Below, in pieces: positions 39,301 through 51,300 of a stretch of 64,000 bases of DNA. The stretch comes from an uncultured Gemmatimonadales bacterium. Its GTDB lineage: Bacteria; Gemmatimonadota; Gemmatimonadetes; Gemmatimonadales; Gemmatimonadaceae. The stretch spans positions 192,001 to 256,000 of the forward strand of contig CAWKNZ010000002.1 in the NCBI GenBank assembly GCA_963851265.1, read 5' to 3'. The position numbers are program-made. Position 1 is the first letter of the stretch; the number at the start of each line of letters is the position of its first letter.

Positions 39301-42300
39301 GCACGCGGCCAGACAGCCGGCGAGCGTGTCGGGCGTGTGGTCCCCCATGTGGCCGACGCGGAACGTGGTAGCCCGAAGGCGCCCGTATCCCGCGCCGATC
39401 GTGTAGCCGCGCGCGGCGACCGCGCGCACGACGGGGCCGCTCTCGAGCCCCGTCGGAAGCGTCACGGCGGTGACCGTGGGCGATCGCGAGCCGGCCGGCG
39501 CGAGCAGGCCCACGCCGAAGCGTTCGGCGCGGGCCTCCACCCACGCCCACATGCGCGCCGCCATCGCGCCGTGCCGCGCCCAGCGCGCCTCGATCGGCTC
39601 GCACGTCGCCATGGCGGCGAGCTGGGCGTCCAGCGCGTAGAACAACGACAGGGCCGGCGTGTTGGGCGTCTGGTGCTTGGTCGCGTACGCCTCGAACTCG
39701 GCCAGGTCGAGGTAGCGCCCGCGCGCCGCCTCGCCCGCCGGCCGGGCGGCCGCGCCCGCGATGAAGTCGGCCGACGCGACGCCGAAGGCCAGTCCCGGCG
39801 GCAGGGCGAGCGCCTTCTGCGAACCCGTGAGCACGAAGTCGAGCCCCCAGGCGTCCGCGTGCAGCTCCGCACCGCCAATTCCGGTCACGCTGTCGACGAG
39901 GCAGGCCGCCCCGTCCGCGCGTGCCGCGGCGGCCACCGCCCGCACGTCGGTGAGCGCGCCCGTCGAGGTTTCGGAGTGCACGACGGTGACCGCGGCGAAG
40001 CGCCCGCCCGTCGATGGCCCGGCCCGCAGCGCGCGCGCGACGTCGTCCGGGTCGGCCGGGCATCCCCAGACCACGTCGAGCGTCTGCACCTCGCGCCCGC
40101 AGGCCCGGGCGATGTCGGCAAAGCGCTCCGAAAACGCGCCGTTGACCACCGCGAGGATCGGCCCCGGAGCCGCGGCGCGCACCGCGCCTTCCATCAGCCC
40201 GGTGGCCGACGACGACGAGAGATAGACCGGCCGCTCGGTGCGGAACACCTGTCGGAGTCCCGCGTCGCACCGCGCATGGAGCGCCTCGAATTCCGCACCG
40301 CGGTGCGGGATCATGGGGCGCACCATCGCCGCGAGCACCGCGGGTCGCACCTCGGTGGGACCCGGAAGAAAGAACGTGCCGAAACCCGCGTCAGGAGTCG
40401 TCATACCGTGTAAGCTGCCGTGACCGGCGGTCACGCGACAGCGCCCAGCACGAGCCCGGCGAGCGCGTCGAAGTTGTCGACCACGTGGTCGGCCGCGGCG
40501 ACCACCGCGTCGCGTCGTGCGAAGCCGGTGAACGCGGCGAGCGCGTCGCACGCGCCGGCCCCGCGCAGCGCGAGGTCGGTACTGCCGTCGCCGCAGCCGA
40601 GCGCCGGACGGGCCGCCACGCCCCAGGCGGCGAGCACGCCGCGCGCGACGTCGCCCTTGCCGCCCTGCGTCGCGAGCAGCGACCCGGCGTCGTAGGCGAA
40701 GTACGCGCCGCCCATGTCGAACACCACGTCCACCGCGTACACGTCGGCCGGGGCGAAGCCGAGGCTGCGGGCGAGTGGAAGGATGGCCTGGCGGAGCCCG
40801 CCGCTGACGAGGGCGATGCGCACTCCCCCCGCGCGCATGCGCTCGAGCGCGTCGGCCGCACCGGGCGCGAGCGCCGCCTGGTACGCGGCGGCCAGCGCCT
40901 CGCAGTCGCCGCGGTCGGGGCGAACGCGCGCGAGCCGCTCGCCGTACACGGCGTCGAGGGCGAGATCGCCGCGCATCGCGCGCTCGGTCGCCTCCGCGAC
41001 CGCGGCGGCCGTCGCGGCGCCGCGCCGTGCGGCAAGCCAGTCGATCCCTTCGACGCCGGCGAGGGTCGAGTCGACGTCGAGCAGGAGCGAGGGGTAGCGC
41101 GGCATGCGGTCGGGAGGCGGTGGGGAGGAGCGTCGGAACGAACCGTCCCCGGGACGGCCGCGCAACGCCGACGCGGGCGACCCCGCCGCGCGCCCCGCGC
41201 CGGAGCAACACTTTCGGGAACTCGCGCGTTTACTGGCGAGTAAGCCTGCGTAACGATGGCGCAAACTCCGGCCACTCGCGGGTTGGATGCCGTTTTCATA
41301 CCGACTGGCCGCCGCGCCTCGACCGGCCGCTCTTCTCGAGTCCGACTATTCGACCGATGGACCTTTCCCGCCCGGACGGGCGATCCGACGCGCTGCCCTG
41401 GCAGGAACGGCAGCGCCGGATGCGCGAGACGGCGATCCTCGATGCCGCCGCCACCCTGCTCGCCGAACGCGGGTACGCGGCCACGAGCATGGACGAGATC
41501 GCCGCGCACGTCGGCATTTCGAAGCCGACGCTCTACCAGCACTTCCCGAGCAAGGACGCGGTCGCGGTGGCCGTGATGCTGCACCGGCTCGGCCACACGG
41601 CGGCGGACATCGCGTCCGCCGAGCAGGCCGTGGCCGAGGGCGAGCGCGCCCGCCCCCAACTGGAGCGGGTGCTGCGCGACGCGCTCGCGCGCCGGGCGGG
41701 CGCGTGGTCCACGCGTGTGGAGCTGCCACGCTCCGTGGTCGACTCGGCGCCCGAGGTGGGCATCGCGCGTCGCGACGTGTGGGCCCGCATCGGCGCCCTC
41801 GTCGACCGTGCCAAGGCCGAAGGGGACTGCCGCGCCGACGCACCCACGCCGGTGATCGCGCGGCACCTCGCGGGGCTGTTCCGTGGTGATTACTCCGATC
41901 TCGTCGATCAGGGCGCACCGTCCGAAGCGCTCGCGGCGACGCTCGTCTCGCTCGTCTTCGACGGCCTCGCGCCGCGCCAGCCCGCGGCCGATCCGCACGG
42001 CGCCGACCCGCACCTTGCCGAGGCGTCGGCCGCGGGCGCGCGCCTCGGCGTGCGGCGGGTCGCCCGGCGCGCGTCGGTGCTGTTCGGAATCGTCGCCGGC
42101 GCGTACGCGCTGACGCCCGGCGCGGTGCGCGCCCAGCAGGCGCCGGTGCTCCCCGCCAGCGTTCCGGCGTCCGCCGGGGCACCCACGCCGGCGCCGCTGC
42201 CCGTTCCCGGGGCGACCCGCTCGGCTGACGATCCGCCGGCGTCGGGCCCGCTCCCCGTGCCGCCGCTCGACAGCAGGGCGCCCATCGGCGCGCCGAGCAC

Positions 42301-48300: not shown

Positions 48301-51300
48301 CTTCCGCCCGATCACGATGACGACGCTCGCCGCGCTCGTCGGCACGCTGCCCATCGCGCTCGGCCTCGGCGCCGGCGCGAAGAGCCGCCAGCCGTTAGGC
48401 ATCGCGGTCGTCGGCGGCCTTCTCTTCTCGCAGGTCGTCACCCTCTACGTCACGCCGGTGCTCTACACCTACTTCGACGGGCTGCAGCAGCGCTTCGCAC
48501 ACCGCAAGGCCAAGGGCACGGTCGCCCGGCCGGGCACGGAACGCGCGGACGACGACGAGCAGGGCGGGCGTGGGACGCCGACGCCGGCCCCGGCGCCGCG
48601 TCCGCAGGCTCCCAAGCAGCCGCTCCCCGCGGCGGCGGCGGTGCGCGCATGAGCGGCTACCCGCCCATCCCGCAGCAGGTCACCCCGACGCCGGTCGTCC
48701 CCGGCGTCTGGGACCTGCCGCTCGGCATCGTCCACGCGTACCTCGTCGCCGACGGCGAGGCGCCGGACGCGCCACTCGCGCTCGTCGACACGGGCCTCCC
48801 CGGCAGCGCACCGGCCATCCTCGGCGCGGTCGCGGCCCTCGGGCGGCGTCCCGCGGACGTGCGCTGGATCGTCGCGACGCACCTGCACGTGGACCACACG
48901 GGCACCCTGGCCGAGCTGAAGCGGGCGAGCGGCGCGGAGGTGCTGATGCACCCGACCGACGCGGCGATGGTGGCCGAGGGCGCCGCGGGGCGCACGATGC
49001 ACGAATCGCCGGCGCCCGGGTCGGCGGCGTTCGTCGCGGGGTTCGACCCGCGCACGCGGCGCGTGGAGCCGTGCGCGACCGACCGCCTCCTCGCCGACGG
49101 CGACGAGTTGCCCTTCGCCGGGGGCGCGCGCGTGGTGCACGCGCCGGGGCACGCCGCCGGGCAGGTGGTGCTGCTGCTGCCGGGCCACGGCGGCGTGCTC
49201 GTCGCCGCCGACGCGTTAGGCAATCCCGGCGGCCGGCTCGGCTGGAGCGTCGGCTACGAGGACCTCGCGCTCGGTGCCGACACGGTCGAGCGTCTCGCGG
49301 GGCTCACGTTCGAGCACGCGGTGTTCGGCCACGGCGACCCGATCGTCGGCGGGGCGGACGCGCGGTTCCGACGGGCGGTGGACGAGGTGTTCCGGGCCGC
49401 GTAGCGCCGTCGCTGCGCGCGCGCCGTAGCACCAGCGCCCGCCCGACCGGCGTCGCGCCGGGCGGCATCACTGTTGCCCCTCCGTCCGGGCCCGCGCTCG
49501 TCGTCGCGGACGCGACGACGCATGCGCGGGCCAGACCCGGAGTGTCAGATGCCCGTCCTCACGTTAGGCCGCCGCGCGCTCGGGGCCGCGGCCGCCCTGT
49601 CCACCGCGGCCGCGGCGCTGCCCGGCGCCGCCGCGACCGCCCACGCCCAGCCGCGCGGCGCGCAGCTGCTCTACGAGTGGCAGGGGCGCGTCGACCACGA
49701 GGTGCAGATCTTTCCGGGGCGCGGCGGCTTCGACGTGCGCGGCATCGGCGGCGCCGAGAACCCGGGCCGATTCCGAAACACCGGCGGCCCGCCGCGCGGG
49801 TCGGGGCAGATCAGCGTCCAGCGCCTCAGCGGCCGCGGCCCCGTCGACGTGCTCGGCAGCAACGTCGTGCGCATCCGCGACCCGCAAGGCGGGGCGGACT
49901 TCTACCGCATCCGCGTGTACTGGCAGCCCAGCGGCGGGCAGTACGGGCGCGGCGACGGCGACGGCCGGAACGACCGCGGCCGCGACGACCGCCGCGGGCG
50001 CGACGACCGCCGGCCGTTCTGAAGCCGGCCCGCGGCGCCGCGCGCACTCACGGGTGCGTGCGGAACGCCCGCACCGCCGCGACCGAGAGCGCGACCGCGT
50101 ACGCCATCGCCTACGCCATCGCCTACGCCATCTCGTCCTGCGGCGGCGGCCCCCGGAACGCGTCCTTGCCGGCCGTCGGCGCGAACGTGACCGGCCGCCC
50201 CGTGCGCGCCGCCTCGTAGATCGCCGCCTGGATGCGGTGATCCTGGACGCCCTCCTCGCCGGGCGTGTACGGCTGACGGTTCTCCCGCACGCACTGCGAG
50301 AAGTGGTCGGCCTCGCGCGCGAACTGGCTCTTCTGCGCCATCGGCAGCTCGGCGATCCGCTCCTGCCCGTTCTCCGCGCGCGCCGCGCGCATCCGCAGCC
50401 CCTCGTAGCTGAACGCCGGGTCGAGCTCGACCCAGCCGTCTTCGCCGGTCACGCGGTAGCGCCGCGACTGGTGCGTGCCGTAGCTCGACCCGCAGTTGGC
50501 GAGCGTCCCCGACGGGAAGCGCATCGACCAGAGCACCGTCTCCTCGACCTCGCGGAAGCGCGGGTCGTCCTTGGGGTCCAGCAGCTGCGCGCGGATCTCG
50601 ACGGGCTCCTCGCCGGTGAGGAAGCGGGCGGTGTTGAAGCAGTAGATCCCCACGTCCGGCAGCGAGCCGCCGCCCGAGAGCGCCAGCCGCTGGCGCCACT
50701 GCGTCGGGTCGCCCTGCGCCTGGCCGTTGAACATCTCGACCACGGTGACCTTGCCTAACGGACCGCGCCCCGGGCCCGAATCGCGCACCATCTTCATCGC
50801 CGCGCGGTTGTGCGGCTCGTACTGGATGCGGTAGGCGACCATCAACTTGCGCCCCGCCGCCGCGCACGCGCGCACCATCCGCTCCGCGTCGGCGACGTTG
50901 GTCGCCATCGGCTTCTCGCACAGCACGTGCTTCCCGGCGCCCGCCGCGCGCACCACCTGCTCGGCGTGCAGCGCGTTGGGCGTGGCGACGTACACGGCCT
51001 CGACCGCGCGGTCGTCGCGCAGGCGGTCCCACTCGTTGTAGCCGTACACCCGCCGCGGGTCGAGCCCGAACTGCTGCGCGATCGCCCGCCCCTTGTTGGG
51101 GTCGCCCGTCATCACCGCGACGAGCTTCGAGCGCTTGCTCTGCTGCATCCCCGGAATCATCTCGGTGAGCGCGATGCGCCCGAGCCCGATGACGCAGTAG
51201 CCGACCCGCATCTCGGGCGGCTCCGGGTTGGGCGGCTGGCCCTCCTGGCGCTCCGTCGACTTCTCGGTGGGCGGAAAGTGCACCGCGGGCGGCTGCGCGC

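Follow-up and report, generated by a model that had tools for sequence, protein, structure and literature searches.

A single open frame in the window (the whole 64,000-nucleotide stretch of DNA that was analyzed) encodes, in one chain, a TetR-type regulator and a TolC-type outer-membrane channel separated by a segment that looks like a signal peptide. On balance we favor the view that the product is a precursor, in which the operon's own TetR-type repressor (the first 207 residues) precedes the still unprocessed outer-membrane channel of the pump, and that it is split at the internal signal. Most likely, signal peptidase I would cut the internally targeted precursor and leave behind a cytoplasmic or membrane-associated autorepressor. 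No published description of a TetR-TolC-type fusion was found in a literature search.

Structure of the fusion gene

The fusion gene (41357..43954, + strand) is a single open frame of 865 codons plus stop, running from ATG 41357 to TAA 43952-43954 through a TetR regulator, a linker, an internal signal peptide-like segment and an outer-membrane factor (OMF). The 865-residue fusion of these parts reported in the preliminary description is real, with both Pfam domains complete in one frame. ATG 41357 is the conserved start, though the frame stays open upstream as far as GTG 41027; the N-terminus M-D-L/V-S/P-R-P-D/E-G-R is found in 5/5 same-genus copies. The host is a soil member of the Gemmatimonadota. 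Its genome has ~75% G+C and long open frames in every frame; the openness of the fusion frame is informative because both halves match families in it and relatives keep it, with full-length in-frame orthologs in three further genomes, G073 (883 aa), G125 (901 aa) and G039 (693 aa).

The TetR-family regulator domain (residues 1-207; 41357..41977, +) ends at a conserved G-L-A-P-R motif. Its HTH (residues 27-73; 41435-41575, +) scores 68.2 bits with Pfam TetR_N against a cut-off of 24; the AF2 model contains 9 helices over residues 15-202 (pLDDT 65-84), and Foldseek aligns this half with the whole TetR regulators DarR, FadR and PfmR (TM 0.62-0.71 on target). Across 14 sequences the recognition helix, S55-K-P-T-L-Y-x-H-F63, does not vary. 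The ORFs scanned from 34885 to 52855 included no other TetR gene.

The predicted mature OMF (Q260-R865; 42134..43951, +) comprises a Pro/Ala-rich N-terminal extension (residues 260-360; 42134-42436, +) and a TolC/OprM-type core (residues 361-829; 42437-43843, +). Two stretches of it match Pfam OEP (148.4 bits against a cut-off of 22), and its sequence matches in the PDB include OprM (1.6e-18), MtrE, VceC, CusC and TolC. Long helical hairpins and 4 strands make up the AF2 model of the core (pLDDT 78-92), and Foldseek matches it to TolC, OprN and OprM (TM 0.71-0.80 on target); the core is complete, with all four barrel strands. The predicted mature channel has no lipobox cysteine. A Gly/Thr-rich low-complexity insert (residues about 416-482; 42602..42802, +), a predicted extracellular loop between predicted strands 1 and 2, contains tandem arrays at 42649-42772 and is flanked by AF2 strands 404-415 and 483-496; its length varies between same-genus copies, and it is far shorter in the P0004-P0015 group of homologs.

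The linker and the predicted internal signal

The linker (residues 208-231; 41978..42049, +) is disordered (pLDDT <50), unconserved and variable in length: between G-L-A-P-R and the hydrophobic stretch lie 15-34 residues, and 21 sequences show 12 distinct lengths, every one of them in frame. Values of dN/dS, rough ones because dS is probably compressed at a GC3 of ~95%, are 0.10-0.37 for the TetR half and 0.14-0.26 for the channel core, as expected under purifying selection, and about 1.1-1.2 for the linker (versus G073 and G125). Purifying selection thus acts on the TetR and channel halves, while the linker drifts, with changing length, yet keeps frame.

The signal peptide-like segment (residues 232-259; 42050..42133, +) begins at codon 232, a GTG, with the n-region V-RR-VA-RR, followed by the uncharged stretch ASVLFGIVAGAYALTPGAV and the c-region V-R-A. 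The junction reads G231-V-RR-V-A-RR-A-S-VLFGIVAGAYALTPGAV-R-A259/Q260-Q, where the slash marks the predicted cleavage site, A259 being the last residue before it and Q260 the first after it (the cut would fall behind nt 42133; ...AVRA/QQ). This matches the junction described previously, and the segment is conserved: R238 is invariant, and conservation reaches at least 90% at R233, A239, G248, A259 and Q260. The uncharged stretch, c-region included, spans 11-25 residues in 21 sequences and 11-12 in five of them. The buried segment looks like the N-terminal signal peptides of the host genome itself, many of which end in ARA/Q. In a genome-wide survey that used a regular-expression heuristic and not a trained predictor, 123 ORFs had a signal peptide-like N-terminus ending AxA/Q (40 of them ARA/Q), Q followed AxA in 13.4% of 314 signal peptide-like N-termini versus 2.5% after internal AxA, and 112/314 had RR n-regions. 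The genome (94% complete) has two genes for signal peptidase I (S26) and an M50 protease; SppA (S49) was not found in it.

The operon and a candidate operator

The earlier placement of the fusion as first gene of an OMF-MFP-RND operon is borne out, the adaptor and RND genes following on the same strand. The periplasmic adaptor (MFP; 43954..45222, +; TIGR01730, 238.9 bits, cut-off 94.9) is a lipoprotein with signal ..AASGC, whose start ATG 43954 overlaps the fusion stop (TAATG); it is syntenic in G073, G125, G164 and G039. The RND permease (HAE1, MdtB/C-like; 45233..48652, +; ACR_tran, 995.6 bits) starts at ATG 45233, preceded by GAGGA, and is syntenic in 4/4 relatives examined. An MBL-fold gene (48649..49404, +; Lactamase_B, 72.7 bits), whose start overlaps the RND stop (ATGA), is probably a fourth operon gene in this genus: it follows the RND gene in G073, G125 and G164, and no copy turned up in the 3.4 kb retrieved past the G039 RND gene. 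No second OMF gene was found in the operon.

Upstream, a divergent HAD-family hydrolase gene (40431..41105, -) shares the intergenic region with the fusion gene and is kept there in G195, G164, G125 and G073, not in G039. This 251-bp region contains a 16-bp palindrome, TTTACTGGCGAGTAAG (41229..41244; TTTACT-N4-AGTAAA type), 113 nt 5' of the fusion start codon. The palindrome aligns in 6/6 upstream regions compared, including that of G039, a member of another genus with a different upstream neighbor. It occurs once in the window (0.02 expected) and once in the whole 4.6-Mb genome, and G164 and G039 likewise have single sites in the same place. No sigma-70-like promoter was found around it, and no RNA run was found to contain the stretch. 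Two earlier caveats are largely answered by these findings: that no operator had been identified, for which this genome-unique, conserved palindrome is now a candidate, and that the TetR part could be non-functional, against which stand its dN/dS, the invariant recognition helix and the conserved palindrome.

Distribution and origin

The count given before was reproduced, all 14 of 14 long homologs in the database (540-919 aa, 45-79% identical) carrying both PF00440 and PF02321. The TetR and signal part is matched at E<=1e-25 in 8/401 genomes of the family (77 genera), namely G000 (the genome analyzed here), 4 same-genus relatives, G039 and two at only 35-37% identity; a sample of 401 genomes spanning 12 families of the phylum gave matches in G000 and G039 alone. 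Fused TetR domains fall in one clade in 21/22 cases (support 100/100), the sister of which consists of 7 stand-alone TetRs ending 15-30 residues past a shared G-L/I-R/A-P-R motif. The frames of two close homologs, P0008 and P0017, are disrupted, and P0018, a stand-alone TetR on a 1.9-kb contig, nests within the fused clade; un-fused or broken forms therefore exist, or these three are assembly errors. The stand-alone sisters fit the lost stop codon mentioned earlier as an origin of the fusion, but the fusion has been kept up since then. That the fusion is genuine, ancient and under selection is supported.

Alternative readings

Because no stop lies between 41357 and 43952, any ribosome that translates the TetR domain goes on to translate the channel. 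The strict 1:1 ratio put forward earlier would be lost if the channel were made from an internal start, GTG 42050-42052, as an ordinary pre-OMF (M-RRVARRAS...), the full-length product being a tolerated by-product or a long-tailed TetR. A start-capable codon does stand at the head of the n-region in 5/6 genomes, and ATG, GTG or M is found at or near the first n-region residue in G000 (GTG 42050), G164 (ATG), G195, G073, G039 and P0006; V or I immediately precedes RRAS in most of the P0004-P0012 group, and such a codon is how a former OMF start would be expected to look. Initiation in this genome is mostly without a Shine-Dalgarno site (motifs precede 18% of real starts versus 10% of internal in-frame ATG/GTG codons), and because the motif is so rare before real starts its lack at codon 232 is uninformative. 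GTG is, however, a common Val codon here and thus weak evidence for initiation; at the aligned position G125 carries ATC, its nearest GTG upstream lying 20 codons away, and in P0013 and P0014 the 12 residues preceding the hydrophobic stretch include no M, V, L or I. Moreover, a channel with its own start would leave nothing to hold the linker in frame or stop-free, yet all 12 linker lengths are in frame. We consider two starts unlikely as the main route to the channel, though some additional channel may be made from an internal start. That the TetR half is inert, a fossil of the lost stop that leaves the gene a channel with a long N-terminal pro-region, would suit a fusion limited to one narrow clade with stand-alone sisters; it is very improbable given a TetR dN/dS similar to that of the channel core, HTH residues invariant down to about 45% overall identity, and a genome-unique palindrome kept upstream even beside a different neighbor gene.

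Two other readings concern the segment itself. Were it a permanent signal-anchor, the protein would be an uncleaved bitopic regulator like ToxR or CadC, which have the same topology, and its OMF-like part would never reach the outer membrane; cleavage in the favored reading is itself a prediction. We regard this as improbable, since an uncharged stretch of 11-25 residues is short for a stable membrane helix, the small-x-small site with its Q is at least 90% conserved and typical of the cleaved signals of this genome, and the channel core is complete, with its four barrel strands, under purifying selection and the only OMF found in the operon. Export by Tat is hardly credible: the conserved RR pairs, an Ala/Gly-rich and weakly hydrophobic core and the frequent Arg at -2 would suit a Tat signal, but A-S-A/V-L after RR, with Ser at the first hydrophobic position, misfits RR-x-F-L-K, RR n-regions are common among signal peptide-like N-termini of the genome, and outer-membrane channel proteins must arrive unfolded at their assembly machinery.

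Proposed mechanism and comparison with known systems

Under the favored precursor reading, translation would run from ATG 41357 through the whole frame and the TetR domain would fold in the cytoplasm. Residues 232-259 would act as a Sec-type signal, inserted N-in/C-out, and the channel part would be threaded to the periplasm; after a signal peptidase I cut behind A259 the channel, starting at Gln260, would proceed to the outer membrane to serve the co-translated adaptor and RND permease. The TetR domain would retain the linker and signal peptide as a short tail in the membrane. From there it may act directly, or it may be set free by removal of the remnant, with the M50 site-2 protease of this genome as the candidate enzyme; E. 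coli RseP clears signal peptides from the membrane and frees the N-terminal cytoplasmic part of FecR (PMC8144685). By analogy with the TetR family, the dimer would bind the palindrome and repress its own operon until released by a ligand, presumably a pump substrate. A single loss of the stop codon separating a TetR gene from the channel gene behind it probably gave rise to the fusion, which has probably been retained because the channel can now be made only from the TetR start.

Like operons of the acrR-acrAB, ttgR-ttgABC and mtrR-mtrCDE type, whose TetR-regulated tripartite layout is described in the review PMC8277102, this one has a presumed TetR repressor of its own, a palindrome within the promoter region and adaptor, RND and OMF grouped together. 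There the regulator is a separate, usually divergent gene, whereas here the OMF precursor itself carries it as residues 1-207, encoded on one strand without an intervening stop. The layout of the fusion, in which a single chain runs from a cytoplasmic DNA-binding domain across one hydrophobic segment into a large periplasmic part, is also that of ToxR, CadC and TcpP. These bind DNA through OmpR-type winged helices, their anchors are true ones that stay uncleaved, and their periplasmic domains are sensors; the fusion has TetR-type DNA binding, a cleavable-looking signal and an outer part that is a structural pump component. RseA and FecR, cut by RseP, offer a parallel to the proposed processing: their N-terminal cytoplasmic regulatory domains stay at the membrane until one cut in the periplasm and a second within the membrane free them. 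In the fusion the initial cut would be a constitutive one by signal peptidase and not a stress- or ligand-gated site-1 cleavage. One chain is split by signal peptidase at a buried signal, with different destinations for its parts, in Bradyrhizobium FbcH (cytochrome b-c1) and in flavivirus and hepacivirus core-envelope polyproteins. The fusion would by analogy likewise be two proteins in one chain around a buried signal, but where those join two membrane or envelope components it joins a soluble DNA-binding repressor to the product that it would regulate. If this reading is correct, one chain would yield products for two destinations, a cytoplasmic regulator and an exported channel.

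A regulator and a channel in one reading frame

The fusion gene runs on the forward strand from an ATG at 41357 to a TAA at 43952-43954, a frame of 865 codons in which both Pfam families are matched in frame. Because the window is ~75% G+C and therefore has long open frames in all six frames, an open frame by itself is weak proof of a fusion. In the N-terminal part TetR_N (PF00440) occupies residues 27-73 (68.2 bits versus a cut-off of 24), providing the three-helix HTH of a TetR regulator, and 70 TetR regulators in the PDB match this part at E<=1e-5; no specific TetR_C Pfam family was matched in the fusion protein. 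The recognition helix, S55-K-P-T-L-Y-x-H-F63, shows no variation in 14 sequences. The channel part contains two PF02321 (OEP) repeats (148.4 bits), the two-repeat arrangement of an outer-membrane factor (OMF). Models of TetR type and of TolC/NodT type were found in NCBIfam as well, the channel part scoring under the curated subfamily cut-offs, with 159.9 bits for TIGR01844 (TolC type; cut-off 225.15) and 133.4 bits for TIGR01845 (NodT type; cut-off 210.05); it is a divergent OMF outside both subfamilies.

An AlphaFold2 model (14 sequences as input; mean pLDDT 60) predicts nine helices in residues 15-202, including an all-helical C-terminal ligand/dimerisation domain (helices 4-9), followed by disorder over residues 203-359 except for a short helix at 240-247, while residues 361-829 form an entire channel protomer, whose four barrel strands (404-415, 483-496, 680-693 and 703-711) are accompanied by long helical hairpins. 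Foldseek aligns the N-terminal part with the whole regulators DarR, FadR and PfmR over 194-212 columns (TM 0.62-0.71 on the target), and the channel part with TolC, OprN and OprM (TM 0.71-0.80 on the target). These matches and the agreeing PDB sequence searches indicate that both halves are complete proteins. A Gly/Thr-rich low-complexity insert (42602-42802, residues ~416-482), built from imperfect tandem repeats of 6-36 nt, separates the first two predicted barrel strands, in what is predicted to be an extracellular channel loop; same-genus copies vary in the length of this insert, and the P0004-P0015 group of database homologs has a much shorter one.

The fusion stop overlaps the ATG of the adaptor gene at 43954 (TAATG), whose product has a lipoprotein signal, and the RND gene starts at 45233. 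An MBL-fold gene (48649-49404) follows, translationally coupled through overlap of its start with the RND stop (ATGA); it is kept behind the pump in the same-genus relatives G073, G125 and G164, and the 3.4 kb downstream of the RND gene in G039, from another genus of the family, showed no copy. A divergent HAD-family gene (40431-41105) is separated from the fusion gene by a 251-bp intergenic region. No further TetR was found among the ORFs scanned at 34885-52855. Farther upstream lie a CheR methyltransferase joined to PAS domains in one protein (34885-37422, forward strand) and a CheB methylesterase (38032-39267, reverse strand), both apparently unrelated to the fusion.

Conservation and distribution of the fusion

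The preliminary description had found both families in all long homologs, and this was reproduced for 14 of 14 proteins of 475-1514 aa. G073 (883 aa), G125 (901 aa) and, in the other genus, G039 (693 aa) each have the complete fusion gene in frame, and the copy of the same-genus relative G195 ends at a contig edge inside the signal n-region. The G164 copy is fused, but its frame shifts downstream in the Gly/Thr repeat, and the RND gene of this genome shifts frame too, which suggests an indel-prone assembly; G164 was for this reason restricted to comparisons of the upstream region and the junction. Its frame change in the fusion gene falls between residues 416 and 477, spanning the Gly/Thr-rich insert.

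At E<=1e-25 the TetR and signal part matched 8 of the 401 genomes sampled from the family (77 genera), namely the source genome (G000), its four same-genus relatives, G039 and two genomes at 35-37% identity; in a phylum sample of 401 genomes from 12 families it was found in two, G000 and G039. Both sets are samples, in which absence means not found among the genomes searched. A search without a word index of 1.84 billion representatives returned 12 matches at E<=1e-30, among which P0008, P0013, P0055 (a truncated sequence), P0056 and the distant P0147 are fused. A scan of genome contigs added one close relative, named Gemmatirosa sp., which ends at a contig edge. Matches in metagenome contigs, retrieved with generic TetR motifs as search patterns, were set aside as 80 loci of unrelated TetRs; an OMF lies near the TetR at 2 of the 82 loci checked (these 80 plus L134 and L135), in both cases divergently.

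A maximum-likelihood tree built on 62 TetR domains places 21 of the 22 fused sequences in a single clade (100/100), whose sister is a group of seven stand-alone TetRs. P0018, a stand-alone protein of 213 aa from a 1.9-kb contig, is placed within the fused clade, and P0147 branches outside it. Two sequences diverge abruptly, in a frameshift-like manner, from near-identical partners, P0017 from P0012 after residue 185 and P0008 from P0009 after residue 208; these disruptions may be real breaks or assembly errors. P0147 is a distant TetR-OMF fusion of 676 aa with a TetR part 32% identical and a buried signal-like segment of its own; it lies on a 377-kb contig with the source label Myxococcota MAG and was a singleton in a follow-up search. 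As judged from this one sequence, P0147 may have fused independently, or it may be a single case of a lost stop.

Selection was estimated as pairwise Nei-Gojobori dN/dS, values that are rough because GC3 of ~95% compresses dS: 0.10 (G000-G195), 0.20 (G073-G125) and 0.31-0.37 (G000 versus G073 and G125) for the TetR domain, 0.14-0.26 for the channel core, 0.44-0.65 for the signal segment, and 1.1-1.2 for the linker (G000 versus G073 and G125; 0.48 in one pair). In G000 the TetR domain ends in GLAPR207 and is followed by a 24-residue linker before V232. Between G-L-A-P-R and the hydrophobic stretch lie 15 to 34 residues, with 12 different lengths in 21 sequences and the frame kept in all, and no linker column is conserved. 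The linker is thus unconstrained in sequence and length, and constrained in frame.

The junction resembles a signal peptide

The junction reads V232-RR-VA-RR-AS-VLFGIVAGAYALTPGAV-R-A259, followed by Q260-Q; R238 is invariant, and R233, A239, G248, A259 and Q260 each reach 90% conservation or more. Substrates of Sec and signal peptidase I (SPase I) have a positively charged n-region, an uncharged h-region of some 7-15 residues and small residues at -3 and -1; by heuristic reading the junction has this layout, with an RR..RR n-region, an uncharged stretch and V/A-x-A before Q. The uncharged stretch (h-region plus c-region) has 11-25 residues, which is normal for a cleavable signal and short for a permanent membrane helix. 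Tat signals have a motif of the S/T-RR-x-F-L-K type, which the junction lacks: A-S-V/A-L follows the RR here.

The signal peptides of the source genome were surveyed with a heuristic script in 2851 ORFs with coding periodicity, of which 314 have a signal-peptide-like N-terminus ending in AxA, 112 of these with RR in the n-region. In this survey Q follows 13.4% of such AxA ends versus 2.5% of internal AxA motifs, a roughly five-fold enrichment; 123 ORFs of the genome have N-termini ending in AxA-Q, 40 of them in ARA-Q. The frequencies of AxA-Q, ARA-Q and RR n-regions suggest that the buried segment is built like the organism's own SPase I substrates. PMC5837995 describes a 'Q-rule' as specific to Bacteroidetes and not to the whole FCB group; by the heuristic survey, G000 may follow such a rule in part. 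It has genes for two S26 signal peptidases and for an M50 site-2 protease; SppA (S49, PF01343) was not found in it (94% complete).

No fused sequence has a Cys at the junction, such as a NodT-type lipobox would contain. The nearest unfused channel homologs, at 26 loci in other genera and 35-46% identical, have a Cys lipobox by eye in 25 cases, the 26th being cut off; leaving out one locus, L030, whose genome is unpublished, does not alter this. No TetR of the fusion's kind occurs within the 1.5-kb flanks of these 26 loci. The lipobox in unfused and AxA-Q in fused homologs point to a lipoprotein signal having been swapped for an AxA-Q signal in the fused lineage. The predicted mature channel begins with a Pro/Ala-rich N-terminal extension (42134-42436, residues 260-360), whose motif, P-x-P-L-x-x-Q-x-V-P-S-Q-T-x-x-V-P-G-V-P-x-x-A-G-G-R-A-P-G-A-P-A-T-P, is conserved in one subclade and missing from the G039/P0014 subclade; unfused homologs have a shorter V-P-G-A-P-x-S-P-like stretch after the lipobox.

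The signal-like segment begins at residue 232 of the frame, and would stand at an N-terminus only if an internal GTG starts translation. Codon 232 is GTG in G000 (42050-42052), and G164 has ATG in the same column. In G195, G073 and G039 a GTG stands no more than a few codons away, and the homolog P0006 has M; these codons look like a former channel start, and codon 232 could be that start, possibly still used for initiation. Speaking against a required internal start, in the codon-level comparison of six genomes G125 has ATC at the aligned position, neither of the homologs P0013 and P0014 carries M, V, L or I among the 12 residues before the hydrophobic stretch, and an independently translated channel leaves the never-lost frame of the linker unexplained. 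The absence of a Shine-Dalgarno motif at codon 232 is uninformative, because such motifs are scarce at starts in this genome: GGAG/GAGG/AGGA at -20..-4 occurs at 18% of 123 confident starts versus 10% of internal in-frame ATG/GTG codons, and G000 seems to initiate mostly without them.

A candidate operator upstream of the fusion gene

In an alignment of the 220 nt before the start codon in six genomes, little is conserved apart from one AT-rich 16-bp palindrome (41229-41244). It reads TTTACTGGCGAGTAAG in G000 and G195, TTTACTGAGGAGTAAA in G125, TTTACCCGTGAGTAAG in G164, CCTACTCCCGAGTAAA in G073 and CTTTACTAGCCAGTAAAG in G039, and in three relatives it is followed by a conserved CCGAACGC-like stretch. 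The palindrome occurs once in the window, at 41230-41243, versus 0.02 expected. Genome-wide, TTACY-N4-RGTAA has one site in the 4.6 Mb of G000 and one each in G164 and G039, always at the fusion gene, two in G125, and no exact match in G073, whose copy carries one mismatch. The second exact match in G125 lies at G125:C1:1535734-1535747 and reads TTACTGACAGGTAA. The palindrome accompanies the fusion gene also in G039, whereas the divergent HAD gene is conserved within the genus only. No promoter or terminator was found in a scan of 40900-42300. TetR-controlled efflux operons have a palindromic site in the promoter region (PMC8277102, section 4.1), and by analogy the palindrome looks like the operator of an autoregulated TetR, making it a candidate site. 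TetR regulators typically bind such an operator close to their own promoter or that of a target, and a ligand releases them from it.

Discussion

The scheme that the sequences make most likely is one in which a single precursor is made, cut by SPase I and autorepressed through its TetR domain. The TetR domain would remain in the cytoplasm while the buried signal engages Sec; signal peptidase I would cleave after A259, and the channel, now starting at Gln260, would move on to the outer membrane. The remnant of TetR, linker and signal would work at the membrane, or be freed once it is cleared, and the repressor would bind the palindrome until a ligand lifts repression. The sequences themselves show a conserved fusion under selection, a junction like a signal peptide and the palindrome; targeting, the cut, what becomes of the repressor, DNA binding and the ligand are inferred.

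Tripartite pumps and local TetR repressors are well known from textbooks, to our knowledge always as separate proteins. TetR-controlled RND operons have the same function; here, in contrast, the regulator is covalently fused, on the same strand, to the exported channel, so that the fusion would represent a known TetR-RND theme differing in this joining of regulator and channel. Its topology is similar to that of ToxR and CadC, and its proposed processing resembles that of FbcH and of viral core-envelope junctions, where a polyprotein is divided at an internal signal. The proposed release follows a logic similar to that of RseA and FecR; according to PMC8144685, RseP, an S2P protease of E. coli, clears signal peptides and sets the cytoplasmic part of FecR free. 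No description of a TetR-OMF fusion or of a membrane-tethered TetR was found in searches of the literature outside subscription journals or in passages of PMC8277102 and PMC5837995.

A more far-reaching reading, which we consider rather improbable, sees the repressor as ~230 extra residues on a cleavable signal peptide; its release, location or stability would report how efficiently the channel is exported. Autoregulation would then run through an export-coupled circuit, an instance of a broader and undescribed tendency among OMF genes to place functional partners before a buried signal. With the same low expectation, efficient export would leave the repressor tethered or cleared via the site-2 protease, and jammed export would let soluble precursor shut the operon. 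Such a circuit, doubtful as it is, would be assembled from signal peptidase and the clearance of signal peptides.

Joining a cytoplasmic DNA-binding protein and one of the outer membrane in a single chain is workable only if the cell separates the two. If the cut is made by signal peptidase, as in the one-precursor scheme, then bacterial signal peptides can act behind a soluble folded domain, at a great distance from its N-terminus, a signal peptide that is 'spent' can bear a functional protein, and a regulator and its regulated product are tied in amount and place. Resting on a single gene and a single palindrome and making clear predictions, the system lends itself to direct tests; it would also be a natural template for export-coupled genetic circuits.
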